Positions 3,976 through 45,114 of a DNA stretch of 64,000 nucleotides are shown piece by piece. A program made the translations under genes and the position numbers. The stretch is from contig DASRFM010000031.1 of the NCBI GenBank assembly GCA_035651575.1, forward strand, positions 67,059 to 131,058, read 5' to 3'. Under the pieces are notes generated by a model that was not told where the DNA came from, ran no database searches, and saw only the letters and a program-made list of their open reading frames with translations. The stretch's first letter is position 1, and every line of letters starts with the position of its first letter. This DNA is from Burkholderiales bacterium (GTDB lineage: Bacteria; Pseudomonadota; Gammaproteobacteria; Burkholderiales; SG8-39).

Positions 3976-5222
3976 CCGCCGGCGATCGAGCGGTACAGCG
4001 CGCCATAGCTCTGCGCCTGCCGGTCCAGGGTGAACTGCGCTTCCACCATCGCGCGCGCCCGGTGGCCCATCTCCTCGCGCTCGCCGGGATGCTCGTCCAT
4101 CCAGCCGATCGATTCGGCGAGCGCGGCCGGGTCGCCGGCGCGCGCCAGCAGGCCCGTGCGCCCGGGAATGACCATGTCGGGGATACCGCCGGTGTCGAAG
4201 CCGACCACGGGTCGCGCGCAGGCCATCGCCTCGAGCGCGGTCTGGCCGAAGGCCTCGGCGAGAGACGGAATGACGAAGACATCGGCGGCGCCGTATGCCG
4301 TCGCGAGCGCGTCTGCCGAGGAAAGCGCGCCCAGCGAGCGCACCGGCGGCAGCTCCGCGGGAAGCTTCGGCATCGCGTCGCCGAACGCGAGGGCGAGGAG
4401 GCGCGGCCGCGAGCGCAGGCGGCCCAGCGCCGCAAGCATCTCGGGCATGCCTTTGCGGCGGTTGGCGTGGGTCTGGGCGCCGAAGCACACGATGAAGGCG
4501 TCTTGCGCGAGGCCGAGCGCGCGGCGGCATTCCGTGCGCGGCTTTGGCGAGAACGCGGCGACGTCGACGCCGTAGTGGATCGTCCGGAAGCTGCGCGCCT
4601 CCGCGAGCACGGCGCTGCGGCGCGCCTCGCCTTCCAGCCAGCGGCTGTCGGCCACGACGTGCAGGTTGCGCCCGCGCAGCGCATCGCGCTTCAGCAGGAA
4701 GTTCTGCCTGGAGGGATCGCTCTCGGCGCGCAGGAACCCGAGCTGCGGGCAGGAGCCGCAGGCACGCGTGAAGCGCTCGCAGCCGAAGCTGTAGTGGCAG
4801 CCGCCGGTGAACGCATGCATGTCGTGCAGCGTCCAGACGACCGGAAACGGCGCGGGCACGCCGGAAAAGAAGGACCGGTAGGCGAGGAAGCCGGCCGTCC
4901 AGTGCAGGTGCAGGACGTCGGGTGCGAATCCCGGCGCGCGCGCGGAGAGCGGCAGGGCATGGCGGCTGTCGCTGAAGATCTCGTAGTCCACCCGCCGGCC
5001 CCAGAGCCACGGCGCCATGCTGCGGATCTGGAAATGCTGCCACCCTGCGCGCAGCGCAGCCGCCAATCCGGTGGCGTACGGTACGTAGGTCGGGTCCGGC
5101 GCTGCGCCGAAGGGATACAGGAAGCGGCTCTCCACGCCTTGCCCGGCGAGCGAATCGTGCAGGCGGCGGGCGGCGATCGCCGCGCCGCCCGACAGCCCCG
5201 CGTTCACGTGCAGGACCTTCAC
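3972..5222 (-). CDS. Glycosyltransferase family 4 (GT-B)
   Basis: 416 aa. The C-terminal region VFVIPSLAEAFGQTALEAMACARPVVGFDTGGIPDMV is the EX7E-type GT4 signature. Confidence 0.8.
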   Translation of the reverse strand: MKVLHVNAGLSGGAAIAARRLHDSLAGQGVESRFLYPFGAAPDPTYVPYATGLAAALRAGWQHFQIRSMAPWLWGRRVDYEIFSDSRHALPLSARAPGFAPDVLHLHWTAGFLAYRSFFSGVPAPFPVVWTLHDMHAFTGGCHYSFGCERFTRACGSCPQLGFLRAESDPSRQNFLLKRDALRGRNLHVVADSRWLEGEARRSAVLAEARSFRTIHYGVDVAAFSPKPRTECRRALGLAQDAFIVCFGAQTHANRRKGMPEMLAALGRLRSRPRLLALAFGDAMPKLPAELPPVRSLGALSSADALATAYGAADVFVIPSLAEAFGQTALEAMACARPVVGFDTGGIPDMVIPGRTGLLARAGDPAALAESIGWMDEHPGEREEMGHRARAMVEAQFTLDRQAQSYGALYRSIAGG

Positions 5223-10387: not shown

Positions 10388-11321
10388 GCGCGGGCCAGCC
10401 TCGGTCCCAGCGCAGGCGGTCGAGCAGCATCTCGCGCGCGCCGCCCGGCGCGCGGTAGGCGTGATAAAGGATCCAGTCGCCGCCGGCATCGTCCGCGATT
10501 ACGCTGCAGTGCCCCGGCGCGATCCAGCCGCCGCCCGCCTCCAGGATCGGGTCCGAGCGATCCTCGAACGGGCCCTCGGCATCGCCCGAGCGCGCCACCA
10601 TCACCGCGTAGCGCGGCTCGCGCGCGCAACAGCGATCGCCGGAGTAGAAGAGAAAATAATCCGGCTCGCGATACACGACCCAGGGCGCCTCGATGAGCGC
10701 ACGATAGGGCTTCGCAGCGTCCGGAAAGAGCAGCTCGCGGGCCGCGCTGCCCGGGAGAAAGCCGAGGCGGTCTGCCGCGAGCTCCTGCACGCGGAGCGGC
10801 GCGCCGCCCGAGCCCCAGTAGAGCAGGCGCTTGCCGCTGCGCGGATCGTCGAACGCCATGGGATCGATGTTCTCGATGCCTTCGCCGCAGAGCAGGGGCC
10901 GGCCGGAGTCGACGAAGGGCCCGGAAGGCGCGGCGGCGCTCGCGACCGCGAGGCATTTGCCGGTCGCGCCGTCGGGCTCCGCCGAGTAGTACATGAAGTA
11001 GGTTCGCCGCTCGGCGTCGTAGAGGACGTGCGGCGCCCAGAACTGCTGCTTTGCGGCGGCCCACGCCGGCTTTGCGGGCAACGCATCGCCGAGCTCTTCC
11101 CAGTGCACGAGGTCCGCAGAGCGCGCGACCTGGATGTTGATCCATTTGCCCGCGCGCTCGGTCTGCGTCGCGTACGCGTAGAAGGCGCCGTCGGCGGCGC
11201 GCAGCACCGCCGGGTCCGGAAAGTCCGCCGGCAGCACCGGATTGACGAAGGCGGGCGGCCCCTGCGTCGCGCACGAGGCGAGCGCGAGGGCGCTGGCGGC
11301 GGCGAGCGATGCGCGCAGCAT
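10377..11321 (-). CDS. Glycoside hydrolase family 43 lipoprotein
   Basis: Start is at MLRASLAAASALALASC (lipobox LASC). FPDPAVLRAADGAFYAYAT, FWAPHV and YFLFYSG are GH43 five-bladed propeller motifs. Confidence 0.8.
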   Translation of the reverse strand: MLRASLAAASALALASCATQGPPAFVNPVLPADFPDPAVLRAADGAFYAYATQTERAGKWINIQVARSADLVHWEELGDALPAKPAWAAAKQQFWAPHVLYDAERRTYFMYYSAEPDGATGKCLAVASAAAPSGPFVDSGRPLLCGEGIENIDPMAFDDPRSGKRLLYWGSGGAPLRVQELAADRLGFLPGSAARELLFPDAAKPYRALIEAPWVVYREPDYFLFYSGDRCCAREPRYAVMVARSGDAEGPFEDRSDPILEAGGGWIAPGHCSVIADDAGGDWILYHAYRAPGGAREMLLDRLRWDRGWPALSR

Positions 11322-33730: not shown

Positions 33731-34381
33731 TTGAAGAACTACCCGCACCCGATCATCGCGCGCGAGGGCTGGCCGTTCCTCGCGATCGCTGTGCTTGCTT
33801 CTCTCCTGGCGAGCGCCTTCTTCGGCTGGTGGTCGCTGCCCTTGTGGCTGGCGAGCGTTTTCATCCTGCAGTTCTTCCGCGACCCGGCGCGCGAGGCCCC
33901 GCAGGACGCGCGCGCCGTGCTCGCGCCGGCCGACGGCCGCGTCGTCGAGGTGTCGCGCTCGCAGGACCCCTATGTGCGGCGCGAGGCGCAGAAGGTGAGC
34001 ATCTTCATGAACGTCTTCAACGTGCATTCCAACCGCTCGCCGGTGGAGGGCACGGTGCAGGAGCGCTGGTACTTCCCGGGCGCGTTCCTGAACGCCGCGC
34101 TCGACAAGGCGTCGCTCGCGAACGAGCGCAACGCGCTCTGGCTGCGCACGCGCGACGGCCAGGACGTCACCTGCGTGCAGGTGGCGGGGCTGATCGCGCG
34201 CCGCATCCTGTGCTATGTTGCCGCCGGCGCCGAGCTCGGGCGCGGACAGCGCTTCGGCTTCATCCGCTTCGGCTCGCGCGTCGACGTCTACCTGCCGCTC
34301 GACGCCGAGATCAAGGCCGCGATCGGCGAGAAGGTCTCCGCCGGAGAAACCGTGATCGCGAGGCTCGCTTCGCATGGCTGA
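33731..34381 (+). CDS. psd: Phosphatidylserine decarboxylase (short Asd-type proenzyme)
   Basis: TTG start. FFRDP, SPADG-like APADGRV and the FGSRVD (G-S cleavage site) motifs. Confidence 0.85.
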
Positions 34382-35183
34382 AGACCCGGACCCCGATCTC
34401 GAGCACGAGGCGGAGCACGACGAGCGGCCCGCAGCGCGGGCGCCCTTCGGCGGCCTGCGCCGCCGCGGCATCTACCTCCTGCCCAATCTCTTCACCACGG
34501 GCGTTCTCTTCTGCGGCTTCTACGCCATCGTGCAGGCGATGAACGACCGCTTCGAGGTCGCGGCGATCGCCGTGTTCGTCGCCATGGTGCTTGACGCGAT
34601 GGACGGGCGGGTCGCGCGCTGGACCCAGACACAGAGCGAGTTCGGCGCGCAGTACGACAGCATCGCCGACATGGTCGCGTTCGGCGCCGCGCCGGCGCTC
34701 ATCGCCTACGAATGGGCGCTGAAGGACCTCGGCACCGGCGGCTGGATCGGCGCGTTCATCTACTGCGCCGGGACGGGGATCCGCCTTGCGCGCTTCAACG
34801 CCAACCTCGGCGTCGTGGACAAGCGCTACTTCCAGGGCCTGCCGAGCCCCTCCGGCGCCGCGGTGATCACGGGCTTCGTGTGGATGCTCAGCGACTTCGG
34901 GCTCGAGCCGGGGGAGTACCTGTCGATCACCGGGCTCACCTGGCTCGTGGCAGTGTTCGCCGGCGTGACCATGGTGTCCAACGTTCCCTTCTACAGCTTC
35001 AAGGAAGTGAACTGGAAGAAGCGCGTGCCGCTGTGGGTGATCCTCGCCGCGGTGGCGGCGTTCTCGGTCATCGCCTCCCGGCCCTCGCTCGTGCTGTTCG
35101 CGCTTTTCTTCGGCTATTCGCTCTCCGGCTACGTCATGTGGGCGATGGGGCAGCGCGTTCGTTCCGTGTTGCCGGAGGAATGA
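34374..35183 (+). CDS. pssA: CDP-diacylglycerol--serine O-phosphatidyltransferase
   Basis: CDP-alcohol phosphatidyltransferase motif DAMDGRVAR...G...DSIAD. Multi-pass membrane protein. Confidence 0.85.
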
Positions 35184-35199
35184 ACGGAGGAAGGCCCCG

Positions 35200-35526
35200 A
35201 TGATCCACGAGCTGCGCATCTACCGCTGCGTTCCCGGACGCCTGCCCGCCCTGCACAAGCGCTTCCAGGGCGCGACGCTCGCGCTGTGGGAGAAGCACGG
35301 CATCCGCCAGGTCGGCTTCTGGACGGTGCTCGTCGGCGACGGCAACCAGGATCTCTACTACCTGCTCGAATGGAAGGACATGGCGGAGCGCGAGCAGAAG
35401 TGGGGCGCCTTCCAGGCCGACCCGGAGTGGCAGGCGAAGCGCGCCGAGAGCGAGCGCGACGGCGCCATCGTCGCGAACGTGACCAGCAGCTTCCTCGCGC
35501 CCACCCCCTATTCGCGGCTCAGGTAA
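35200..35526 (+). CDS. NIPSNAP-family protein
   Basis: MIHELRIYRCVPGR and the YYLLEWKDMAEREQKW pattern. GGAGGA RBS upstream. Confidence 0.7.
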   Translation: MIHELRIYRCVPGRLPALHKRFQGATLALWEKHGIRQVGFWTVLVGDGNQDLYYLLEWKDMAEREQKWGAFQADPEWQAKRAESERDGAIVANVTSSFLAPTPYSRLR

Positions 35527-35540
35527 TTCGGTGGTATAGT
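35511..35540 (+). promoter_or_regulatory. Candidate promoter upstream of the leuA leader (TTCGCG-18 nt-TATAGT)
   Basis: TATAGT at 35535-35540 and TTCGCG at 35511-35516. Pattern match only. Confidence 0.3.
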
Positions 35541-35547
35541 CGCCGCC

Positions 35548-35625
35548 ATGCATCAGGCCCTCGCTTCGCTCCTCTCGCCCGCGCTCCTCGCGCTGGGCGG
35601 CCTGCTGCTGCGCCCCGCGCGCTAA
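35548..35625 (+). promoter_or_regulatory. Candidate Leu-rich leader peptide ORF of leuA (MHQALASLLSPALLALGGLLLRPAR)
   Basis: 25-codon ORF with 9 Leu codons, including a CTG CTG CTG run, in the 189-nt leuA upstream region. It is followed by a 7-bp hairpin at 35658-35678. Confidence 0.4.
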
Positions 35626-35715
35626 ATTCCCCGACCCACAATCCGAGCTTCGACCGCTCTGCCCCCACAAAGGGCAGAAAGGGACAAGTCCATCCTCATC
35701 CAGGGAAAACTGCAC

Positions 35716-37284
35716 ATGAACGACGTGACCCCCAAAGGCAGCCAAGACAACTTGATCATCTTCGACACCACCATGCGCGACGGCGAGCAGAGCCCCGGCG
35801 CGTCCATGACCAAGGACGAGAAGCTGCGCATCGCGCGCGCCCTGGAGCGCATGCGCGTCGACGTGATCGAGGCGGGTTTCCCGGCGGCGTCGAACGGCGA
35901 CTTCGAGGCGGTGCAGGCGATCGCCAACGTCGTCAAGGATTCGACCGTGTGCGGCCTGTGCCGGGCGAACGACCGCGACATCCAGCGCGGCATCGACGCC
36001 CTGAAGGGCGCGAAGTCGCCGCGCATCCACGTGTTCCTCGCCACGAGCGCGCTGCACATGGAGAAGAAGCTGCGCATGACGCCCGCGCAGGTGCACGAGC
36101 AGGCGAAGCTCTCCATCAAGTTCGCGCGCAAGGCCTGCGCGGACGTCGAGTTCTCGCCGGAAGACGGCAGCCGCTCGGACCCGGACTTCCTCTGCCGCGT
36201 GCTCGAGTCGGTCATCGCCGAGGGCGCCACCACGATCAACATCCCCGACACGGTGGGCTACGCGGTTCCGGAGCAATTCGGACTTTTCATCAAGGACCTG
36301 AGGACGCGGATCCCGAACTCGGACAAGGCGGTGTGGTCGGTGCACTGCCACAACGACCTCGGCATGGCGGTCGCCAACTCGCTCGCCGCGGTGAAGATCG
36401 GCGGCGCACGCCAGATCGAGTGCACGATCAACGGCCTCGGCGAGCGCGCGGGCAACACCTCGCTCGAGGAAGTCGTGATGGCGGTGCGCACGCGGAAGGA
36501 TTTTTTCAACCTGAAAACGAAGATCGATGCGACGCACATCGTGCCGACGTCGCGCCTCGTGTCGCAGATCACCGGCTTCGTGGTGCAGCCCAACAAGGCG
36601 GTGGTGGGCGCCAATGCCTTCGCGCACGCCTCGGGCATCCACCAGGACGGCGTGCTGAAGGCGCGCGACACCTACGAGATCATGCGCGCCGAGGACGTGG
36701 GCTGGACCACCAACAAGATCGTGCTCGGCAAGCTCTCGGGCAGGAACGCGTTCAAGCAGCGCCTGAAGGAGCTCGGCGTCGAGCTCGAGAGCGAGGACGC
36801 CTACAACAAGGCCTTCCAGCGCTTCAAGGACCTCGCCGACAAGAAGGCCGAGATCTTCGACGAGGACCTGATGGCGCTCGTCGCGCAGGAGGCGGGCCTC
36901 TCGTCGGAGGAGCACTGGAAGCTCGTCACCATGAACCAGGCGAGCGGCATGGGACAGAAGCCTTTTGCAAAGATCACCCTCCTCGAAGCCGGCCATGAGA
37001 AGCAATCCGAATCCCAGGGCGACGGGCCGGTCGACGCGACGTTCAAGGCGATCGAGGCCCTGGCGAAGAGCGGCGCGGAGCTGCTGCTCTACTCGGTGAA
37101 CGCCGTCACGCAGGGCACCGAGTCGCAGGGCGAGGTGACGGTGCGGCTCTCGAAGGGCGGGCGCATCGTCAACGGCGTGGGCGCCGACACCGACATCGTC
37201 GTCGCCTCCGCCAAGGCCTACATCAGCGCGCTGAACAAGCTGGAGAGCAAGGTCGAGCGGGTCAACCCGCAGCATCAGCACTAG
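35716..37284 (+). CDS. leuA: 2-isopropylmalate synthase
   Basis: [15 protein letters not shown] and [16 protein letters not shown] motifs, plus the C-terminal LeuA dimerisation/regulatory domain. 522 aa. Confidence 0.95.
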
Positions 37285-37285
37285 G

Positions 37286-38299
37286 GTGAGGAGGGCCGCG
37301 CCGCCGGGCGTCACGGACACCGAGGACCGCTATTACGGGATGCTCGCCGGCGCGGCGGCGGCGCGGGTGCTCGAGTCGGTCGAGGCCGTCGGCCTTGCGC
37401 CCCTGCTCGCGCGCGGCAAGGCGCTCAAGCCTGAGGCCATCGCCACGGCGCTGAAGCTCGACGTGAAGCGCGCGTGGAAATGGTTCGGCCTGCTCGAGCA
37501 GATGGGGTTGCTTGAGCGCGAAGGCGCTGCGCGCTACCGCGCCGGTCCGCTCATGCGCTCGATGTTCTCTCCGCAGGGGAAGCTGCTCTTCTTCTACCGC
37601 GACTTCCTGCGCTACTTCAACGTCGTCATGGGCTTCGATCTCGCGGCGGTGCTGCGCGGCGCGCCGGTCGCCGGCGTGCCGTACCCGCCGCAGACGCCCC
37701 TCGAGGTGGAGCTGCTGGAAGCGTGGATGCGCACCACGGCGCAGGGCACGCTCGCGCGCATGGAGCGCGCGATACGCTTCTCCGCAGTCTCGCGCCTGCT
37801 CGACGTCGCGGGCGGCGACGCGACGATGGCGATTGCGCAGGCAAGGCGCCATCCTCGCCTGCACGTCACGGTCTTCAACCTGCCGGCTTCCGCGGCGCTC
37901 GCCCGCAAGAATGTCGCCGCGGCGAGATTGCAGAAGAGGATCGACGTCGTCGAGGGCGACTTCCGCCGGGATCCGCTGCCGCGCGGCTACGACATGGTGC
38001 GCTTCTCGCGCGTGCTCGCCGATTGGCCCGAAGAGGTGTGCGGCATGCTCCTCGCGAAGGCGCACGCGTCCCTCGAGCCGCGCGGAAGGGTACTGATCTG
38101 CGAGCCGCTCGCCGACGACAATCCTGCGCTGGTCTTCGCCTGGCATTTCAGCTACCTGCCCTACGACGACTTCGGCGTCGGCGTGTACAAGCCGGCGGCG
38201 GCCTATCGCCGCCTGCTCGCCGACGCGGGCTTCAGGCGCGTCACGGTGAAGCCGCGCGACCGCGAAAGCATCCACTCGGTCATCGTGGCCGCAAAGTGA
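37286..38299 (+). CDS. Methyltransf_2-type SAM-dependent O-methyltransferase with N-terminal winged-helix/dimerisation region
   Basis: LLDVAGGDATMAIA (motif I), DVVEGDF, YDMVRFSRVL and GRVLICEP. The start is ambiguous: GTG 37286 lies 2 nt after the leuA stop, and ATG 37340 is the alternative. Confidence 0.7.
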   Translation: MRRAAPPGVTDTEDRYYGMLAGAAAARVLESVEAVGLAPLLARGKALKPEAIATALKLDVKRAWKWFGLLEQMGLLEREGAARYRAGPLMRSMFSPQGKLLFFYRDFLRYFNVVMGFDLAAVLRGAPVAGVPYPPQTPLEVELLEAWMRTTAQGTLARMERAIRFSAVSRLLDVAGGDATMAIAQARRHPRLHVTVFNLPASAALARKNVAAARLQKRIDVVEGDFRRDPLPRGYDMVRFSRVLADWPEEVCGMLLAKAHASLEPRGRVLICEPLADDNPALVFAWHFSYLPYDDFGVGVYKPAAAYRRLLADAGFRRVTVKPRDRESIHSVIVAAK

Positions 38300-39288
38300 A
38301 GGCGCCGCCTGCGATCTACGTCAGCGGCGTCGCGGGCGGGACCAATCCGTCGCCCGGCGTGGGGATCGCGCGCTGCCTGCGCGAGGCGTTCCCCGCTGCG
38401 CGGCTCATCGCCGTGGATTACAGCCCGCACAGCGCCGGCCTCGCCTGGGCGGACTTCGACGAATGCATCGTGCGTCCTTCGTGGCTCCTGCGCGGGCCGC
38501 AGCGGCACGTTGCCTACGTCCGCTCGGTCCTCGCTCGCGGGGGCATCTGGCTGTCGTGCCTCGACCTCGAGCTGCGCCTGCTCGCGCCGCACCTGCGTCG
38601 CCGTGCGCTGGCGCCTTGCCCGCCGCTGCGCGCGCTGCGCTGGGCGCGCAAGCCCGCGGCCGAGATCGCACGCCGGCTCGGCCTCGCGGCGCCGCCCTCG
38701 CTTCGGGTGGGCAGGAACAGCGATGCCGTGCTCGGGGCGTTCTGCCGGGAGCACGGCTGGCCGGTATGGGTGAAAGGGCCCGACTACGGCGCAGCGCCGA
38801 TCTGGTCCTGGTACGAGCTCGCGCCGGCCTTGCGCGAAATGGCGGCGCTCTGGGGCGGGCGCGAAAGGCTCCTTCTCCAGGCGCACAGCGACGGCCACGA
38901 CGTCACCCTCGCATTCGCCGCGCTCGGCGGCCGGCTGCTCGGCGCCGCGCAGCTCGAGAAGCTCGAGCGCACCGCCGAGGGCAAGGTCTGGCGCGGGCGC
39001 GTGAGCGCGGTGCCGCAGCCGCTCGAGCGCAGGCTGCGCGCGCTGGTTCGCGATGCGCGCTGGTCGGGAGGCGGCGAGATCGAGTGCGTGCGCGACCGCG
39101 CGTCGCGGCTGTGGCTCGTCGAATGCAATCCGCGCTTCCCGGCCTGGATCTACGGCGCGGCGCTCGCCGGCCGCAACCTTCCGGGGCTGCTGGTGGGCAC
39201 CCTGACTGGCGAGAAGCTTGCGCAACCCCGCAGGCGCGAGCGCGGCACCTTCACGCGCATTGTCCTGGAGAATCCGGCTCCCCTATAA
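38296..39288 (+). CDS. ATP-grasp domain protein (carboxylate-amine/peptide ligase type)
   Basis: GTGA overlap with the methyltransferase stop. Has a Rossmann-like pre-ATP-grasp N-terminus, WPVWVKGPDYG, and a LWLVECNPRFPAW metal/ATP-site motif. 330 aa. Confidence 0.7.
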   Translation: MKAPPAIYVSGVAGGTNPSPGVGIARCLREAFPAARLIAVDYSPHSAGLAWADFDECIVRPSWLLRGPQRHVAYVRSVLARGGIWLSCLDLELRLLAPHLRRRALAPCPPLRALRWARKPAAEIARRLGLAAPPSLRVGRNSDAVLGAFCREHGWPVWVKGPDYGAAPIWSWYELAPALREMAALWGGRERLLLQAHSDGHDVTLAFAALGGRLLGAAQLEKLERTAEGKVWRGRVSAVPQPLERRLRALVRDARWSGGGEIECVRDRASRLWLVECNPRFPAWIYGAALAGRNLPGLLVGTLTGEKLAQPRRRERGTFTRIVLENPAPL

Positions 39289-39677
39289 TGCCGCAGCCGA
39301 CTTTGGCGGGGGGCCAGATGGCGCACAAGAAATCCGCAGCACCGAAGGGAAAAAAATCAGCGGGCAAGGCAGTGGCCGTGAATCCGTGGCTGCCGGCCGT
39401 GCCGCTCAAGGGGCGCAAGCTCCTGAAGCCGGTGCTGGCCGTGCCGCTCGCGATGATGGCGGGCGCGGCGAGCGCGGATCTTCTGCCGGCGCGTGCGCTG
39501 ACCGTTCCGGCCGAGGCCGCCCGGCAATCGCTGTCCGCGAAGGACTACGAGCGCCTGGTCGGCGCGAAGAAGGCCGAGATCCTGCGCAAGTTCGAGGGCA
39601 GGCAGGCGTTCCAGCTGGCCCAAGGCAGCGATAGCCGCGGCGGCGGCAAGAGCGGCCAGCGCCCGAGCGGCAGCTAG
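39288..39677 (+). CDS. Small basic protein of unknown family with an internal Sec-signal-like segment
   Basis: The only frame with GC3-biased codon usage in the 390-nt space between the ATP-grasp and decarboxylase genes. It has a Lys-rich N-terminus, then KGRKLLKPVLAVPLAMMAGAASA followed by DLL. Alternative starts are 39318, 39372, 39378 and 39399. Confidence 0.5.
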   Translation: MPQPTLAGGQMAHKKSAAPKGKKSAGKAVAVNPWLPAVPLKGRKLLKPVLAVPLAMMAGAASADLLPARALTVPAEAARQSLSAKDYERLVGAKKAEILRKFEGRQAFQLAQGSDSRGGGKSGQRPSGS

Positions 39678-39682
39678 CGCGT

Positions 39683-40837
39683 TTGCGGCGGCAGGCCCTT
39701 CCGGCGCCGCTGCGCCGCGACCTGCTTCGCGTCCTGCGCTCCGGCGCCGGCGATACGCCGAGGCGCTTCCTCCTTCCCGAGTACGCCGCGAGCCAGTTCC
39801 GCGAGGCCGCGCGCGCGGCATCCCGTGTCAAGGCGTCGCCGCGCGTCGTGCTCGCCTACAGCATCAAGACCAATCCGTTTCCCGGGCTCCTCGACCTCGC
39901 GCGGGCGCACGGCATGCGCGCGGAGGCCATCACGCAGGCCGAGGTGGCGCATGCGCTGCGCCGCGGGTTCCGGATGGAGGACACCGTGCTGAACGGCCCG
40001 GCGAAGTGGTGGCCGGAGCCGGTGCGCGAGACCGGGTATGCGGCGATCTTCTGCGATTCTCTGCAAGAGCTGCGTGCGCTGCGCGGCGCGCTCGCCGCAG
40101 GCCGCGTGCGGGCGCGCAGCGTCGGCCTGAGGCTGCGGCCGGCGACCGTGCGCTCGCGCTTCGGCGTCGACCTCTCGGAGCGCAAGTCCTTTGCCGAGGC
40201 GGTGCGGCTGCTGCGCAGCCTGCCGCGCGACCAGGAGATCGGCTTTCACTTTCACCAGGCGAGCAGCGCGGTCGGCGTTCGCACATGGCAGTATCTGGCG
40301 CGCAACTTCATCGCTGCGGCGGGCATCCTGGGCGAGCACGCCGGGCGCCCACCCGCGGCGCTCAGCGTCGGCGGCGGCTGGCATCCGGACGACTGGTCGC
40401 GCTTCCTGCGCGCGGAGCTCGGCGATCTCGCGAGGCTCTGCCGGCGGCAGATCCCGTCGCTGCGCGAGCTCATCGTCGAGCCGGGCAAGGCGCTTGCGCA
40501 GCGCTCGATGGGCCTCGTCATGCGCGTGCTCGAGGTGCGCCGCGGCGAGCTGCTCGTCGACGGCTCGGTGGCCGAGCTGCCCGACCTGCCGAGCCATCCG
40601 CATCGCTTCGTCTCGCTGAAGGCCGGGAAGCTCGCGTCGTGGCCTTCCGGCCGCACGCGGCTTCTCGGACGCCTGTGCATGGAATTCGACGTCGTCGGCG
40701 AGGCGCTGCATCCGCCTGCCGGGCTGCGGGCGGGCGATCTCGTCGCGGTGCTCGACTGCGGCGCCTATGATGCGAGCATGGCCTACCTTTTCAGCCGCGG
40801 CTTCGTCGAGGCACTGCCCGGCCCAGGCACGCTTTGA
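39683..40837 (+). CDS. Orn/DAP/Arg-type (fold III) PLP-dependent decarboxylase
   Basis: TTG start. YSIKTNP (PLP lysine), SVGGGW (phosphate loop), VEPGKAL and GRLCMEFD (catalytic Cys region). 384 aa. Confidence 0.75.
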   Translation: MRRQALPAPLRRDLLRVLRSGAGDTPRRFLLPEYAASQFREAARAASRVKASPRVVLAYSIKTNPFPGLLDLARAHGMRAEAITQAEVAHALRRGFRMEDTVLNGPAKWWPEPVRETGYAAIFCDSLQELRALRGALAAGRVRARSVGLRLRPATVRSRFGVDLSERKSFAEAVRLLRSLPRDQEIGFHFHQASSAVGVRTWQYLARNFIAAAGILGEHAGRPPAALSVGGGWHPDDWSRFLRAELGDLARLCRRQIPSLRELIVEPGKALAQRSMGLVMRVLEVRRGELLVDGSVAELPDLPSHPHRFVSLKAGKLASWPSGRTRLLGRLCMEFDVVGEALHPPAGLRAGDLVAVLDCGAYDASMAYLFSRGFVEALPGPGTL

Positions 40838-41655
40838 AGGCGTCGCCGAGGACCTGGCTGTTTGTCCCGGGGGCGGACGAGCGTGCGCACGCGGCCGCGG
40901 CGCGCTCGGGCGCGGACGTAGTCATCCTAGAGTTGGAGGACTTCACGCCGCCCGAGCTGCGGCCCAGGGCCCGCGCGCTCGCGGCGAAGGCATTCCGGGC
41001 GTGGAAGCAAGCCGGCGCACGGACCGCCGTGCGCGTCAACCCGCTCGAGGGCGACGGCGGCGCGGACCTCGGTGCCGTGCTGCCCGCGAGGCCGGATTTC
41101 GTCCTCCTGTCGAAGGTCGTCTCGGCAGCGCAGCTGCGGGCGCTCGAGGCGGCGAGCGGCGCCGCTTTCGACCTCGTGCCCAACATCGAGACGGCCGCCG
41201 GCCTCGTCCGCGCGCAGGAGATCCTCGTTGCCAGCCGGCGCGTGGTCGCCGCGCTCGTCGCGAGCGAAGACATGGTCGCCGACCTCGGCACCGAGCGCAG
41301 CCGCGGCGGGGCGGAGCTTGCGTACGTGCGCGCCCGCTTCCTCGTGGAATGCCGCGCCGCCGGCGTCGAGGCGATCGATTGCCCGTACACCTTCGGCGAC
41401 GCGAAGGGCGCCGTGGCCGACGCGCGCTACGCGAAGCGCCTCGGCTACCGCGCGAAGAGCCTGGTGGATCCGTCCCACGCGCGGCTGATCAACGCGGTGT
41501 TCAGCCCTTCCCGGAAGGAGATCGAGAAAGCGCGGCGCATCGTGTCGGCGTTCGACAAGGCCCGCGCCGCCGGGAAGGAGCGCGCCCGCGTCGGCGGGCT
41601 GCTCGTGGAAGTGCCGATCTACGCCGCGGCGAAGCGCCTGCTCGAGCGCGCATGA
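40834..41655 (+). CDS. HpcH/HpaI aldolase / citrate lyase beta (CitE)-family protein
   Basis: TTGA overlap with the upstream gene. WLFVPGADERA, VVILELEDF, VRVNPL, VPNIETAAG and SEDMVADLG are CitE-family motifs. Confidence 0.75.
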   Translation: MKASPRTWLFVPGADERAHAAAARSGADVVILELEDFTPPELRPRARALAAKAFRAWKQAGARTAVRVNPLEGDGGADLGAVLPARPDFVLLSKVVSAAQLRALEAASGAAFDLVPNIETAAGLVRAQEILVASRRVVAALVASEDMVADLGTERSRGGAELAYVRARFLVECRAAGVEAIDCPYTFGDAKGAVADARYAKRLGYRAKSLVDPSHARLINAVFSPSRKEIEKARRIVSAFDKARAAGKERARVGGLLVEVPIYAAAKRLLERA

Positions 41656-42005
41656 GGGCAGGGTGGCTGCTTCTCGTCTTCGGCGGCGCCGCGCTTGCAC
41701 AGCCCTCGTGCTTCGATGCCGCGAACGACCGGGCCGCGCTGGATGAGTGCGCGCAGAAGGAGATCCTGCCGCTCGAGGCGGCCGTCGTGAGCCGGGTGAA
41801 CGCCCTGCGCGCGAAATACCGGAATACTGCGGGCCTGCGCGAGGCGCTGGAGAAATCGCAGGACTCGTGGAATGCATACCGCAACGGCCATTGCAGCGTC
41901 GAGGCGCAGGCACGCGGCGGCTCCGAGGTCGCGGCGCAGAGGGCCTACGCGTCCTGCTCGAAGCGCGAGCTTGCCGCAAGATTGAAGGAACTGGAGGGAC
42001 TGTGA
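41652..42005 (+). CDS. DUF1311 (LprI-like) secreted protein
   Basis: ATGA overlap with the upstream gene. Signal peptide MRAGWLLLVFGGAALAQ, plus C...LDEC...SQDSWNAYRNGHC...C cysteine spacing typical of LprI-like domains. Confidence 0.65.
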   Translation: MRAGWLLLVFGGAALAQPSCFDAANDRAALDECAQKEILPLEAAVVSRVNALRAKYRNTAGLREALEKSQDSWNAYRNGHCSVEAQARGGSEVAAQRAYASCSKRELAARLKELEGL

Positions 42006-42958
42006 AGCGGCTCTTCTTTCTCGTCCTGGTCTTCGCCGCGGGGCTGGCGCGCGCCCAGGCGCCCTATCCCGGCAAGCCGATCCGCCTCATCGCGCCGTTT
42101 CCGCCCGGCGCGGTGGTGGACACGCTGTGCCGCGCGCTCGGCGCGCCGATGGGCGAGCTGCTCGGGCAGCCGGTGGTGGTGGAGAACCGCGTCGGCGCTG
42201 GCGGCAACATCGGCATGGACCTCGTCGCCAAGGCGCCGCCCGACGGCTACACGATCGGCATGGGGAGCATCGGCACCCACGGCATCAATCCGAGCGTGTA
42301 CGCGAAGATGCCTTTCGACCCGGTCCGCGATTTCGCCCCGATCACGTTCGCCGCGAGCAACATCAACGTGCTGGTCGTCAATCCCGCGGTTCCTGCGCGC
42401 AGCGTCGCGGAGCTGATCGCCTATGCGAAAGCGAATCCCGGCAAGCTCTCGTTCGGCTCGGCAGGGGTCGGCACCTCGCAGCATCTCGCCGGCGAGCTCT
42501 TCAAGCAGGTGACCGGCATCGAGATGTCGCACGTCCCATACAAGGGCGCGGGCCCCGCGGTGACCGACCTGATCGCCGGGCAGATCCCGCTCATGTTCGC
42601 CGATATCTCCGCGGCGCTGGGCCACGTGCGCGCCGGCCGGCTGCGCGCGCTCGGCGTCACGACGCGGGCGCGCACGCCGCTGCTGGACGTGCCTACGCTC
42701 ATCGAGCAGGGCGTTCCGGACTTCGACGTGAACGCGTGGTTCGGGCTGTTCGCGCCCGCCGGCACGCCCGCCGAGATCGTCGCCCGGCTGAACGGCGCGG
42801 CGGTGAAGGCGCTCGGCGCGCCGGCCACGCGCGAGCGGCTGCAGGGCCTGGGCCTCAATCCCGCGCCCGACACGCCGCAGGCCTTCGAGCGCTTCGTCCG
42901 TGCGGAGCTCGAGCGCTGGGCCAAGGTCGCGCGCGCGGTCAATATCCGCGCCGAGTGA
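42002..42958 (+). CDS. Bug-family (TctC-like) tripartite tricarboxylate transporter substrate-binding protein
   Basis: GTGA overlap with the upstream gene. Signal peptide and YPGKPIRLIAPFPPGAVVDTLCRAL, GSAGVGTSQHL and VPYKGAGPAVTDLIAGQ motifs. No tctA/tctB adjacent. Confidence 0.85.
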   Translation: MKRLFFLVLVFAAGLARAQAPYPGKPIRLIAPFPPGAVVDTLCRALGAPMGELLGQPVVVENRVGAGGNIGMDLVAKAPPDGYTIGMGSIGTHGINPSVYAKMPFDPVRDFAPITFAASNINVLVVNPAVPARSVAELIAYAKANPGKLSFGSAGVGTSQHLAGELFKQVTGIEMSHVPYKGAGPAVTDLIAGQIPLMFADISAALGHVRAGRLRALGVTTRARTPLLDVPTLIEQGVPDFDVNAWFGLFAPAGTPAEIVARLNGAAVKALGAPATRERLQGLGLNPAPDTPQAFERFVRAELERWAKVARAVNIRAE

Positions 42959-43289
42959 GGCGCGCGTAGGCCACCACCGCGGCGAAGAACGCGAGGCTGA
43001 GGCCGATCTCCGCGAGCGCCGCGGCGCGCGAGGCGCCGCGCTCGGCCCAGGCGCGCATCACGCCCTCGGCGAAGTACGCGAGCACAAGCAGGCTCGACCA
43101 CTGGTAGGTGTAGCGCCGCCCGGCGAGGATGCCGCCGAGCGCGAGCGTGAGCGGCAGCGCCTTCAGCGCGGCGAGCGAGCCGCCGGGGCGCAGCGGCGCG
43201 AGCCACAGCTCCCACGCGAGGCACAGCGCGATCAGCATCACCAGGGCGCAAAGCGCCGCCGCGCGCAGCTTGGCCATGCTCGGTATCAT
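42939..43289 (-). CDS. DUF2069-like membrane protein
   Basis: Four hydrophobic segments and a GRRYTYQWSSLLVLAYFAEGV motif. The start could be 43277. Confidence 0.6.
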   Translation of the reverse strand: MIPSMAKLRAAALCALVMLIALCLAWELWLAPLRPGGSLAALKALPLTLALGGILAGRRYTYQWSSLLVLAYFAEGVMRAWAERGASRAAALAEIGLSLAFFAAVVAYARLTRRGY

Positions 43290-43299
43290 AAGAGCAACA

Positions 43300-44145
43300 A
43301 TGAAAAGGCCAGCGTGGCGCGAGCTTGCGCAGTTCGGCGTGGCGGTCGTGCGGCGCTTCTACGAGGACCGCAGCTCGCAGACCGCGGGCAGCCTCACCTA
43401 TACGACGCTGCTCGCGCTGGTGCCGCTGCTTACCGTCGCCCTGACGGTCTCGACCGCGTTCCCCGTGTTCGACCGGCTGCTCGGCGCGCTGCAGGACTTC
43501 GTCGTCGACCACGTGCTGCCGGACACGCCGGGCGTCGACACCTTCGCCGAGCAGCTGAACGAGTTCACCGAGCGCGCCGGGCGCGTGCGCGCGATCGGGC
43601 TGGCGGCGCTCGGCCTCACCGCGCTCATGACCATGCACACCATCGAGGACGCGCTCAACCGCATCTTCCGCGTGGCGCGGCCGCGCCTCCTGGCAAAGCG
43701 CTTCGCCATGTACGTCGTGGTGCTCGCGGTGGGCCCGCTGCTGATCGGCGCCAGCCTCTCGATGACGACCTTCCTCATCGTGAGCTCGCTCGGCGCCCTG
43801 AACCTGGATTCGGTGGCCGAGTCGGTGCTGCGCTTCCTGCCCTTCGTGCTCACTTGCGCGGCGCTCACGCTCTTGTACATCCTGGTGCCGAACCGCGAGG
43901 TCCCGGCGCACCATGCGCTTACCGGCGGCTTCCTCGCCGGCGTCGCTTTCGAGCTCGCCAAGCGCGCGTTCGCCCTCTACGTGAGCCGCTTTCCCACCTA
44001 CGCCTTCATCTATGGAACCTTCGCCACCATGCTGCTTTTCCTCATCTGGATGTACGTGTCGTGGTTCATCGTGCTCGCCGGCGCCACGCTGACCGCGATG
44101 CTTCCCGGCCTGAAGGAGCGCGGCGCGCTGAAAGGCCAGCCGTGA
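43300..44145 (+). CDS. YihY/BrkB-family inner membrane protein
   Basis: SLTYTTLLALVPLLTV, VPNREV and FATMLLFLIWMYVSWFIVLAGA are YihY-family features. Confidence 0.8.
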   Translation: MKRPAWRELAQFGVAVVRRFYEDRSSQTAGSLTYTTLLALVPLLTVALTVSTAFPVFDRLLGALQDFVVDHVLPDTPGVDTFAEQLNEFTERAGRVRAIGLAALGLTALMTMHTIEDALNRIFRVARPRLLAKRFAMYVVVLAVGPLLIGASLSMTTFLIVSSLGALNLDSVAESVLRFLPFVLTCAALTLLYILVPNREVPAHHALTGGFLAGVAFELAKRAFALYVSRFPTYAFIYGTFATMLLFLIWMYVSWFIVLAGATLTAMLPGLKERGALKGQP

Positions 44146-44846
44146 GCGCGATCGCCCGCGAGGAGCGCCTCATCGTCGCGCTCGACGTCGCGAGCCCGGC
44201 CGAGGCGCGCGCCCTCGTCGAGCGCCTCGGCGATGCGGCGCGCTTCTACAAGATCGGCATGGAGCTCTTCATGGCGGGGGGCTACTTCGAGCTGCTCGAG
44301 TGGCTGGTCGGACGCGGCAACAAGGTCTTCGTCGACCTCAAGTTCTTCGACGTGCCGGAGACCGTGCGCCGCGCGGTCGCGAACCTGCGCGGCCGCGGCG
44401 CGACGTTCGCAACGGTGCACGGCAACCAGGCGATGATGGAGGCCGCCGCGCAGGCGAAGGGGGAGCTGCGCATCCTCGCCGTCACCGTCCTCACCAGCCT
44501 CGATCGCGGCGACCTCGACGACCTCGGCTTCTCCTGCGACGTCGAGCACCTCGTCCTGTCGCGCGCGCGGCGCGCCATCGAGGCGGGCTGCGACGGCGTG
44601 ATCTCTTCAGGCCTCGAGGCATCCCGCCTCAAGAAGGAGTTCAGGGAAAAGCTCCTCGTGGTCACGCCGGGGATCCGGCCGGTGGAGAACAAGCCCGCGG
44701 ACGACCAGAAGCGCACCGTCGACGTCGCGCAGGCCTTCGCGAACGGCGCGGACTACATCGTGGTCGGGCGGCCGATCCGGCAGGCCGCGGATCCGCGTGC
44801 CGCGGCGCAGGCGATCCAGCGCACGATCGCCACGGCCTTTACTTGA
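44142..44846 (+). CDS. pyrF: Orotidine 5'-phosphate decarboxylase
   Basis: GTGA overlap with the upstream gene. LIVALDV, FVDLKFFDVPETV (DxKxxD), TPGIRP and IVVGRPI. Confidence 0.9.
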   Translation: MSAIAREERLIVALDVASPAEARALVERLGDAARFYKIGMELFMAGGYFELLEWLVGRGNKVFVDLKFFDVPETVRRAVANLRGRGATFATVHGNQAMMEAAAQAKGELRILAVTVLTSLDRGDLDDLGFSCDVEHLVLSRARRAIEAGCDGVISSGLEASRLKKEFREKLLVVTPGIRPVENKPADDQKRTVDVAQAFANGADYIVVGRPIRQAADPRAAAQAIQRTIATAFT

Positions 44847-45114
44847 GCAGCGTCTCGAGCAAGCGCCTGAGCACCTCGTGCGAGGGCGGCTGCGGCCCGA
44901 AGAAGAGCGTCTCCGCGCCGCGCTTCACGAGGATCGTCGGGAAGTTCTCGATCTCCAGCTCGCCGACCCGCTCCGCGTCGTCCTCGGTATCGAGCCAGCC
45001 GAAGGCGGCCTGCGGGAACGCGGCGGCGAGCGCCTCGAACCCCGGGCGGTACTCGGCGCAGGTGTCGCACCACGCCGCGCAAATGCAGGTCACCTCGTAC
45101 GCCGGCCGGGCCAT
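44839..45114 (-). CDS. Thioredoxin-fold protein
   Basis: 91 aa with a WCDTC (CxxC) motif and FPTILV. This is the 3' end of a longer antisense ORF whose upstream part is rejected. Confidence 0.6.
   Translation of the reverse strand: MARPAYEVTCICAAWCDTCAEYRPGFEALAAAFPQAAFGWLDTEDDAERVGELEIENFPTILVKRGAETLFFGPQPPSHEVLRRLLETLLK

Follow-up and report, generated by a model that had tools for sequence, protein, structure and literature searches.

An ATP-grasp ligase/PLP decarboxylase cassette with a small basic partner protein, conserved across phyla, forms the core of a seven-gene bacterial operon

To our knowledge, pairs of an ATP-grasp ligase and a pyridoxal phosphate (PLP)-dependent decarboxylase drive the only known carrier-templated amide assembly lines that are independent of non-ribosomal peptide synthetases (NRPS), namely those for the butirosin side chain and for closthioamide. 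In both systems (BtrJ/BtrI/BtrK and CtaD/CtaE/CtaF) a stand-alone ATP-grasp enzyme and a decarboxylase of the ornithine/diaminopimelate/arginine (Orn/DAP/Arg) fold work with a small protein: the ligase loads Glu or Asp onto a tether by way of its side-chain carboxylate, the decarboxylase accepts the tethered form only, and the pair can iterate (PMC7183216). For closthioamide, CtaD couples the Asp side-chain carboxylate to the carrier, CtaF requires the tethered form for decarboxylation, and the CtaD/CtaF steps iterate, mirroring BtrJ/BtrK; a peptidyl carrier protein (PCP) is encoded near 95% of CtaD homologues (PMC7183216). Here we describe a locus in a Burkholderiales bacterium (contig DASRFM010000031.1; the whole 64,000-nucleotide stretch that was analysed is called the window) in which the same kind of enzyme pair flanks a gene for a small basic protein of another type, g3. 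The pair has been kept without a recognisable carrier elsewhere too, fused or adjacent in hundreds of soil genomes, the form built around g3 being the rarer one.

The locus at 37286-42958 consists of seven tightly packed open reading frames (ORFs) on the + strand, g1-g7, all of which are present in the sequence as claimed in an earlier reading of this DNA (the original prediction):

37286-38299, + strand: g1, family-2 S-adenosylmethionine-dependent methyltransferase, 337 aa (PF00891, 2e-24)
38296-39288, + strand: g2, ATP-grasp carboxylate-amine/thiol ligase of the carbamoyl phosphate synthetase (CPS)-like/PRK12767 type, 330 aa (AlphaFold2 (AF2) fold, catalytic residues)
39260-39289, + strand: putative σ70-like promoter, TTGTCC-18 nt-TATAAT, in the last codons and stop of g2
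39318-39677, + strand: g3, small basic protein, 119 aa (alignment of 12 homologues)
39683-40837, + strand: g4, fold-type III (Orn/DAP/Arg family) PLP-dependent decarboxylase, 384 aa (PF02784, PF00278)
40834-41655, + strand: g5, CitE/HpcH-family (acyl-CoA) lyase-like protein, 273 aa (PF03328, 1e-30)
41652-42005, + strand: g6, secreted DUF1311/LprI-family protein, 117 aa (PF07007, 3e-9)
42002-42958, + strand: g7, orphan Bug/TctC periplasmic solute receptor, 318 aa (PF03401, 5e-79)

A word-indexed protein search found 42 relatives of g2, and a pattern scan covering one genome per species found 574. Related contigs were fetched (L0xx below; P0xxx denotes related proteins from the ATP-grasp search) and searched by tblastn with the seven window proteins and with accessory proteins, and the gene tables of several contigs were read. 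The ligase and decarboxylase genes are neighbours in 85 of the 88 loci fetched from the 574 genome hits; for at least two of the remaining three, the contig runs out no more than a few hundred bases from the ligase gene. In the clade to which the window belongs, whose ligases are 53-79% identical, every locus has a g3 homologue, placed either between the genes of the two enzymes or immediately upstream of that for the decarboxylase. Its members include Nitrospirota (L003-L007, L009, L010 and L092), a Myxococcaceae metagenome-assembled genome (MAG; L011), an unclassified MAG (L090) and betaproteobacteria-like contigs (L089, L091 and L094). L011 has its g3 and decarboxylase genes, in unchanged order, on the strand opposite to that of the ligase gene. 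Furthermore, a g1-type methyltransferase is encoded directly upstream of the ligase in six lineages (the window, L089, L090, L091, L094 and L009), the orthologues in the five other than the window showing 60-80% identity.

Of all the loci, the window and L089 (76% identity) alone carry the CitE gene g5, and tblastn matches to g6 (LprI) and g7 (Bug) were confined to L001 and L002, both from the same organism as the window. The seven-gene operon is a four-gene cassette (g1-g4) conserved across phyla, to which lineage-specific genes have been added. The original prediction had described a coupled operon of seven genes, which do not hold together as one conserved unit, and had proposed co-occurrence of the ATP-grasp, decarboxylase and CitE genes as a check on it; of this trio, the first two indeed travel together, but CitE accompanies them in two lineages only. 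In L089 the order methyltransferase-ligase-g3-decarboxylase-CitE is followed directly by DUF2069-BrkB-pyrF, with no LprI or Bug gene, and in L091 leuA lies directly upstream of the cassette, as it does in the window. Because L089 retains the DUF2069 context and L091 the leuA context, the cassette occupies the same chromosomal site in related organisms, and g6-g7 are a recent insertion. We envisage that g1-g4 may be a horizontally mobile cassette and that the window lineage would have gained the CitE-like lyase first and the DUF1311 protein and orphan Bug receptor more recently. GC content is 0.70-0.73 in the operon and 0.65-0.73 in the flanks, values that do not discriminate horizontal acquisition.

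Most of the 574 relatives (>500 genomes) belong to a sister clade, with ligases ~38-45% and decarboxylases ~39-45% identical to those of the window and in the same gene order. It is found in Pyrinomonadaceae, Allosphingosinicella, Sphingomonas, including the cultured S. qilianensis, and on a plasmid of Streptomyces zaomyceticus; the enzyme pair is widespread among Acidobacteriota of soil and Sphingomonadales. These loci have neither g3 nor a family-2 methyltransferase, and have other conserved partners instead. The interval between ligase and decarboxylase is here a low-complexity linker; P0031 and P0033 are extended at the C-terminus across it and into the N-terminal part of the decarboxylase, and in P0042 ligase similarity is joined to a decarboxylase domain. 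The L008-type 'small ORF', considered as a possible g3 homologue, turned out to consist of this linker together with the start of the decarboxylase, from a ligase-decarboxylase that is split or fused. On the finished S. zaomyceticus plasmid NZ_CP108525.1 (L099, 8992-11268), the two enzymes form a single 758-aa ATP-grasp::Orn/DAP-decarboxylase chain that is annotated as hypothetical. Fusion in one protein is strong evidence that ligase and decarboxylase handle one and the same molecule, one directly after the other. The cooperation of the two enzymes, which the original prediction had assumed, is thus borne out both by their adjacency and by this fusion.

The sister-clade partners form protein families of their own. 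Downstream of the decarboxylase is a family of 200-256 aa (L008 4166-4936, L099 11265-11852 and ~68 other loci) with invariant Cys96, His152 and Asp168 and the motifs HHGxxCC, LDCG and IYHE; the protein that follows the L099 fusion is a member (hhalign probability 99.4%). A second group comprises paralogues of 227 and 234 aa (L008 148-831 and 866-1570, and ~64 other loci) with the motif PAHRDH...CHEFIWFRTN, which are 55-70% identical across phyla and exceed the accompanying enzymes in conservation. Neither the Cys/His/Asp family nor the HRDH paralogues matched any entry in Pfam, NCBIfam or the PDB. The former could be a papain/transglutaminase-like (BtrH/CtaG-like) transacylase, and the latter may be metal-dependent oxygenases. 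All proteins of the sister cassette are annotated as hypothetical.

The small protein g3 is the distinguishing component of the window-type cassette. All homologues begin with M/V-A-K/N-K, corresponding to the ATG at 39318, which is preceded by a G-rich Shine-Dalgarno sequence, and an in-frame ATG further upstream, at 39288, probably does not serve as the start. This bears on the gene junctions of the original prediction: the four-base overlaps GTGA (38296), TTGA (40834), ATGA (41652) and GTGA (42002) are all present, but the TAATG at 39286-39290 is not the g3 start. Instead, g2 and g3 are separated by a 29-nt gap that contains the promoter-like element, and the g3 stop lies 5 nt before the g4 start in the window and 2-5 nt before it in most loci. 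Of six g3 pairs compared, five give a dN/dS ratio of 0.13-0.25 and the most divergent one gives 0.44, and the invariant residues of its N-terminal motif show many synonymous changes at the DNA level; because of these two features we conclude that g3 is a real gene under purifying selection. The alignment, the dN/dS values and an exhaustive family search show the small ORF, which the original prediction counted among the operon genes, to be a genuine and conserved partner gene. That search, by HMMER through 1.84 billion representatives, yielded five clusters of 97-113 residues, and a scan of metagenome contigs yielded seven g3 loci, one of them (L098) spurious. L098, taken initially as a distant homologue, is an antisense ORF inside a 972-aa gene. 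In the searches made, the g3 family is confined to the cassette.

Three parts can be recognised in g3. The N-region of 37-45 residues carries a net charge of +9 to +13 and holds the motif NPW(L/I)PAVPxKG, of which N-P-(W/F)-x-P-x-x-P is invariant across the family. A hydrophobic stretch of 12-16 residues follows, which contains V-P-L and ends in small residues (A-x-A). The C-terminal part (50-69 residues) is mostly helical, with one predicted helix and a basic Gly-rich (Gly/Lys/Arg) tail. This arrangement looks like a signal or anchor of the Sec type whose cationic N-region is unusually long, suggesting that g3 may be an exported or membrane-inserted peptide. No Pfam or NCBIfam family matched g3, including the phosphopantetheine-binding family PF00550, at E ≤ 0.01, and its AF2 model has a predicted local distance difference test (pLDDT) score of 55 and no four-helix bundle. 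We considered whether g3 is an acyl carrier protein (ACP) or PCP and rejected this on the missing PP-binding match, the missing conserved Ser and the low-confidence, non-bundle model; a LysW-like carrier was rejected likewise, as g3 has no Cys and the model is not a bundle.

The sequence TTGTCC-18 nt-TATAAT at 39260-39289 is the sole σ70-like match in the 9 kb scanned, where 0.2 were expected. TATAAT is invariant in eight loci with 62-73% GC (the window, L089, L091, L094, L090, L009, L010 and L092), in which TTGTyy stands 18 nt upstream; the promoter-like TATAAT is absent from L003, L006 and L011. Depending on the locus, the conserved hexamer reads as L-stop, I-stop or V-stop or, in another frame, as Y-N, and its invariance whatever its coding points to selection on the DNA and not on the protein. 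We predict that this site drives a g3-g4 transcript in addition to read-through from leuA and g1. In the Nitrospirota loci L009 (~10985-11005), L010 (~4075-4095) and L092, a perfect TTGACA lies ~10 nt downstream of TATAAT, just before the AGGAAGGAGA Shine-Dalgarno sequence; this hexamer in the g3 5' untranslated region may act as an additional promoter element or as an operator.

The ligase and the decarboxylase of the cassette have intact catalytic motifs. Sequence matches of g2 are weak (PF15632 and PRK12767), and its AF2 model is confident (pLDDT 91), with 2pn1 (CPS-like), CPS1, L-amino-acid ligase, PurK and PylC as the top Foldseek matches; the catalytic residues K119, K160, E263, N278 and R280 are invariant in 32 homologues. 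The CPS-like ATP-grasp clade has been grouped with BtrJ-like enzymes (PMC4431377). For g1 the best solved relative is SibL (1.8e-23), followed by DnrK, BchU and ASMT. All catalytic motifs of g4 are kept, and its family is invariant at the PLP-Lys (YSIKTNP), HFHxASS, GGGW, EPGK, LGRLCMExD and GAYDxSM. The best PDB match to g4 as a single sequence is BtrK (1.5e-12); with the family profile the order of solved matches is FslC (1.6e-27), then DAP decarboxylases and then BtrK (7.5e-20). BtrK acts on Glu-S-ACP, FslC on N-citrylornithine and SbnH on citryl-Dap. As judged by sequence, the nearest solved relatives of g4 (BtrK, FslC and the DAP decarboxylases) are all enzymes for amino acids whose far end is conjugated, which speaks in favour of the module proposed below.

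By analogy of components, the closest characterised counterparts of the cassette are BtrJ/BtrI/BtrK and CtaD/CtaE/CtaF, which the original prediction had missed. Because the cassette combines this kind of enzyme pair with a small protein, as in closthioamide biosynthesis, but encodes no PCP, we propose that it is a ligate-then-decarboxylate module, either carrier-free or with a new carrier, for which g3 would be the dedicated partner; we favour this reading tentatively and would stop short of calling it probable. The g2-g3-g4 partnership is supported because g3 is strictly syntenic in three phyla, even in the strand-split locus L011. In this scheme g2 would activate a carboxylate as an acyl phosphate and join it to a nucleophile, the carboxylate being, by analogy, that of an Asp, Glu or similar side chain; g4 would then decarboxylate the free α-amino-acid end left by g2, and g1 would methylate the product or a precursor of it. 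The most likely role of g3 would be that of an acceptor or tether, or of a peptide that carries the product, and it would be co-expressed and translationally coupled with g4 from its own conserved promoter. The substrate, the role of g3 and the order of the steps we infer from the Btr and Cta systems.

Membership of the thiotemplated Btr/Cta family itself fails on the carrier: unlike BtrI and CtaE, g3 is not an ACP or PCP and looks exported, and Pfam and NCBIfam profiles identified no phosphopantetheinyl transferase, ACP or BtrH/CtaG-type transacylase among the seven operon proteins. The enzymatic logic is known, and the partner protein is new. A bolder version of the proposal, which we consider unlikely, is that g3 is a new ribosomal acceptor independent of phosphopantetheine, on which ω-aminoacyl units (of β-alanyl or 4-aminobutyryl type) would be built through amide bonds in the cytoplasm, possibly iteratively, before export by way of its signal-like segment. 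If so, the cassette would run a counterpart of the thiotemplated BtrJ/K and CtaD/F cycle with a protein as its template and would represent an undescribed post-translational modification or a class resembling the RiPPs, peptides that are made on the ribosome and modified after translation. More generally, once the substrates of the two enzymes are identified, they would reveal either amino-acid-derived metabolites of a new family or a new way of modifying proteins, and genome miners would have a handle on clusters now labelled 'hypothetical' or 'diaminopimelate decarboxylase'.

Several observations weigh against a ligate-then-decarboxylate module with g3 as its acceptor. The cassette contains no PCP gene of the kind found near 95% of CtaD homologues. 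In g3 there is no invariant Ser, Cys, Lys, Asp or Glu, no confident fold and no nameable attachment site. Any likeness of g2 to BtrJ and CtaD is indirect, through its placement in the CPS-like/PRK12767 group. FslC, not BtrK, is the top solved match by the g4 profile, which would fit a free small-molecule route equally well, and the family of g1, to judge by its relatives, usually acts on small molecules. Furthermore, the sister clade runs the enzyme pair without g3, so the chemistry is not intrinsically dependent on it, and the part of g3 could lie in export, membrane anchoring or regulation and not in serving as an acceptor.

The main rival to the proposed module is that the cassette makes a free small-molecule amide by an ATP-grasp analogue of NRPS-independent siderophore (NIS) chemistry, which we regard as possible but doubtful. 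Here g2 would form an amide between a (poly)carboxylic acid and the side-chain amino group of a diamino acid, g4 would decarboxylate the conjugate and g1 would methylate it; in the window lineage CitE would supply or trim the acid and Bug would bind the carboxylate product, and g3 would be an accessory membrane or export protein. Such a route accords with the rank of FslC among the g4 profile matches, with the small-molecule ligases that are the ATP-grasp fold neighbours of g2, with the small-molecule enzymes related to g1, with a sister clade that works without g3 and with the translational coupling of CitE to g4 in the window and L089. The cassette also shares its decarboxylase family with FslC (rhizoferrin) and with SbnH, which works alongside SbnG in staphyloferrin B, and an HpcH/CitE gene adjoins it in the window lineage. 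However, the amide maker here is an ATP-grasp enzyme and not an IucA/IucC synthetase; the operon encodes no NIS synthetase, exporter, TonB receptor or other siderophore transport gene, g4 scores 33 bits against the FslC model, whose cutoff is 500, and both CitE and Bug are missing from most cassettes. Nor does the small-molecule route explain the strict synteny of g3, its coupling to g4 and its separate promoter. Of the ideas advanced in the original prediction, the analogy to SbnG/SbnH and re-import by Bug depend on accessory genes, since CitE, LprI and Bug are not conserved as part of the cassette. With no IucA/IucC among the seven proteins and a Bug receptor found only in the window lineage, neither the staphyloferrin-like reading nor re-import is upheld. 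A role in modifying the cell envelope, with g3 anchoring the enzymes at the membrane and a substrate such as a meso-DAP peptidoglycan precursor or an aminolipid head group, seems improbable to us. The basic N-region and hydrophobic segment of g3 do resemble those of membrane-targeted proteins, DAP decarboxylases are among the nearest solved relatives of g4, and in two lineages a small periplasmic protein is encoded after the decarboxylase (LprI in the window, a CusF-like protein in L003 and L006). Yet no envelope-biosynthesis gene is conserved with a cassette that is itself rare and patchy in distribution, the methyltransferase has no obvious role in such a scheme, and the case is inferential throughout.

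The combination of a methyltransferase, an ATP-grasp enzyme and a small ORF had also suggested a graspetide-type (microviridin-type) RiPP locus, in which the ATP-grasp enzyme would macrocyclise the g3 precursor through side-chain ester or amide links and the methyltransferase would tailor it. Besides this layout, the NPW(I/L)PAV of g3 loosely matches the P-h-h-x-h leader motif described for graspetides (PMC8939145). The components, however, are of other types: g2 matches no graspetide maturase model (for example TIGR04187) at E ≤ 0.01 and its nearest folds are CPS, PurK, Lal and PylC, not RimK-like enzymes, while g1 is a PF00891 family-2 enzyme, closest to SibL, and not a protein isoaspartate methyltransferase (PIMT)-type enzyme (TIGR04188). 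In addition, g3 lacks the conserved Thr/Ser/Lys plus Asp/Glu core pattern, a PLP decarboxylase is out of place in graspetide chemistry, and there is no C39 peptidase or ABC exporter, so that we give this reading very little credence. Another parallel is the LysW/AmCP system (LysX), in which an ATP-grasp enzyme likewise puts an amino acid on a small ribosomal protein by an amide and not a thioester; unlike LysW, g3 has no Cys, and hence no zinc finger, and a basic rather than acidic C-terminus, and g2 is CPS-like and not RimK/LysX-like. A further account, a second lysA and a central-metabolism citE beside leuA, was named in the original prediction as an outcome that would overturn it. These are the best NCBIfam names for the two proteins, and the cassette follows leuA in the window and in L091. 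Nevertheless, g4 reaches 75 bits against the lysA model TIGR01048 (cutoff 298) and g5 reaches 159 bits against the citE model TIGR01588 (cutoff 443), far under both equivalog cutoffs, and the ATP-grasp enzyme and g3 are constant companions of the decarboxylase across unrelated contexts and phyla; we think it next to impossible that the locus belongs to ordinary primary metabolism. Membership of the graspetide, NIS, LysW and lysA/citE groups thus fails in each case on defining features.

The accessory proteins g5 and g6 have solved relatives of their own. The PDB matches of g5 are citrate lyase β and malyl-CoA lyases, and it is also below the cutoff of the RipC model (141 bits, cutoff 375); g6 matches 3gi7 (DUF1311) at 5e-4. 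In Nitrospirota L003 (10602-10925) and L006 (10734-11084), a small secreted protein with weak CusF/DUF5666 similarity is encoded after the decarboxylase. In L003 this gene overlaps the decarboxylase gene. The presence of such a protein parallels that of the secreted LprI protein after CitE in the window.

The operon is closely bounded on both sides. The leuA stop codon ends at 37284 and the g1 GTG begins at 37286, with one base between them; at the other end, a minus-strand DUF2069 gene (42939-43289) has a convergent 20-nt overlap (42939-42958) with the 3' end of the Bug gene g7, and no terminator-like hairpin was detected between these two genes. No terminator-like site was found within the seven-gene stretch either, which is physically one tight transcription unit, and an Rfam search of 34000-45000 returned no RNA element. 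In general, the original prediction was right that the set fits no nameable pathway, as no curated family or pathway model captures it; profile hidden Markov models agree with all seven of its family assignments, that of g2 being weak by sequence and backed by the confident ATP-grasp fold, and every motif that it quoted occurs in the translations. A literature search for systems that combine an ATP-grasp enzyme, a PLP decarboxylase and a precursor or scaffold peptide gave no description of the cassette. We also considered a role in anti-phage defence and rejected it, PADLOC having returned a generic methyltransferase match only. Further upstream, between a pssA-like gene and leuA, there is a 108-aa ORF at 35200-35526 (MIHELRIYRCVPG...) that overlaps its upstream neighbour by 4 nt.

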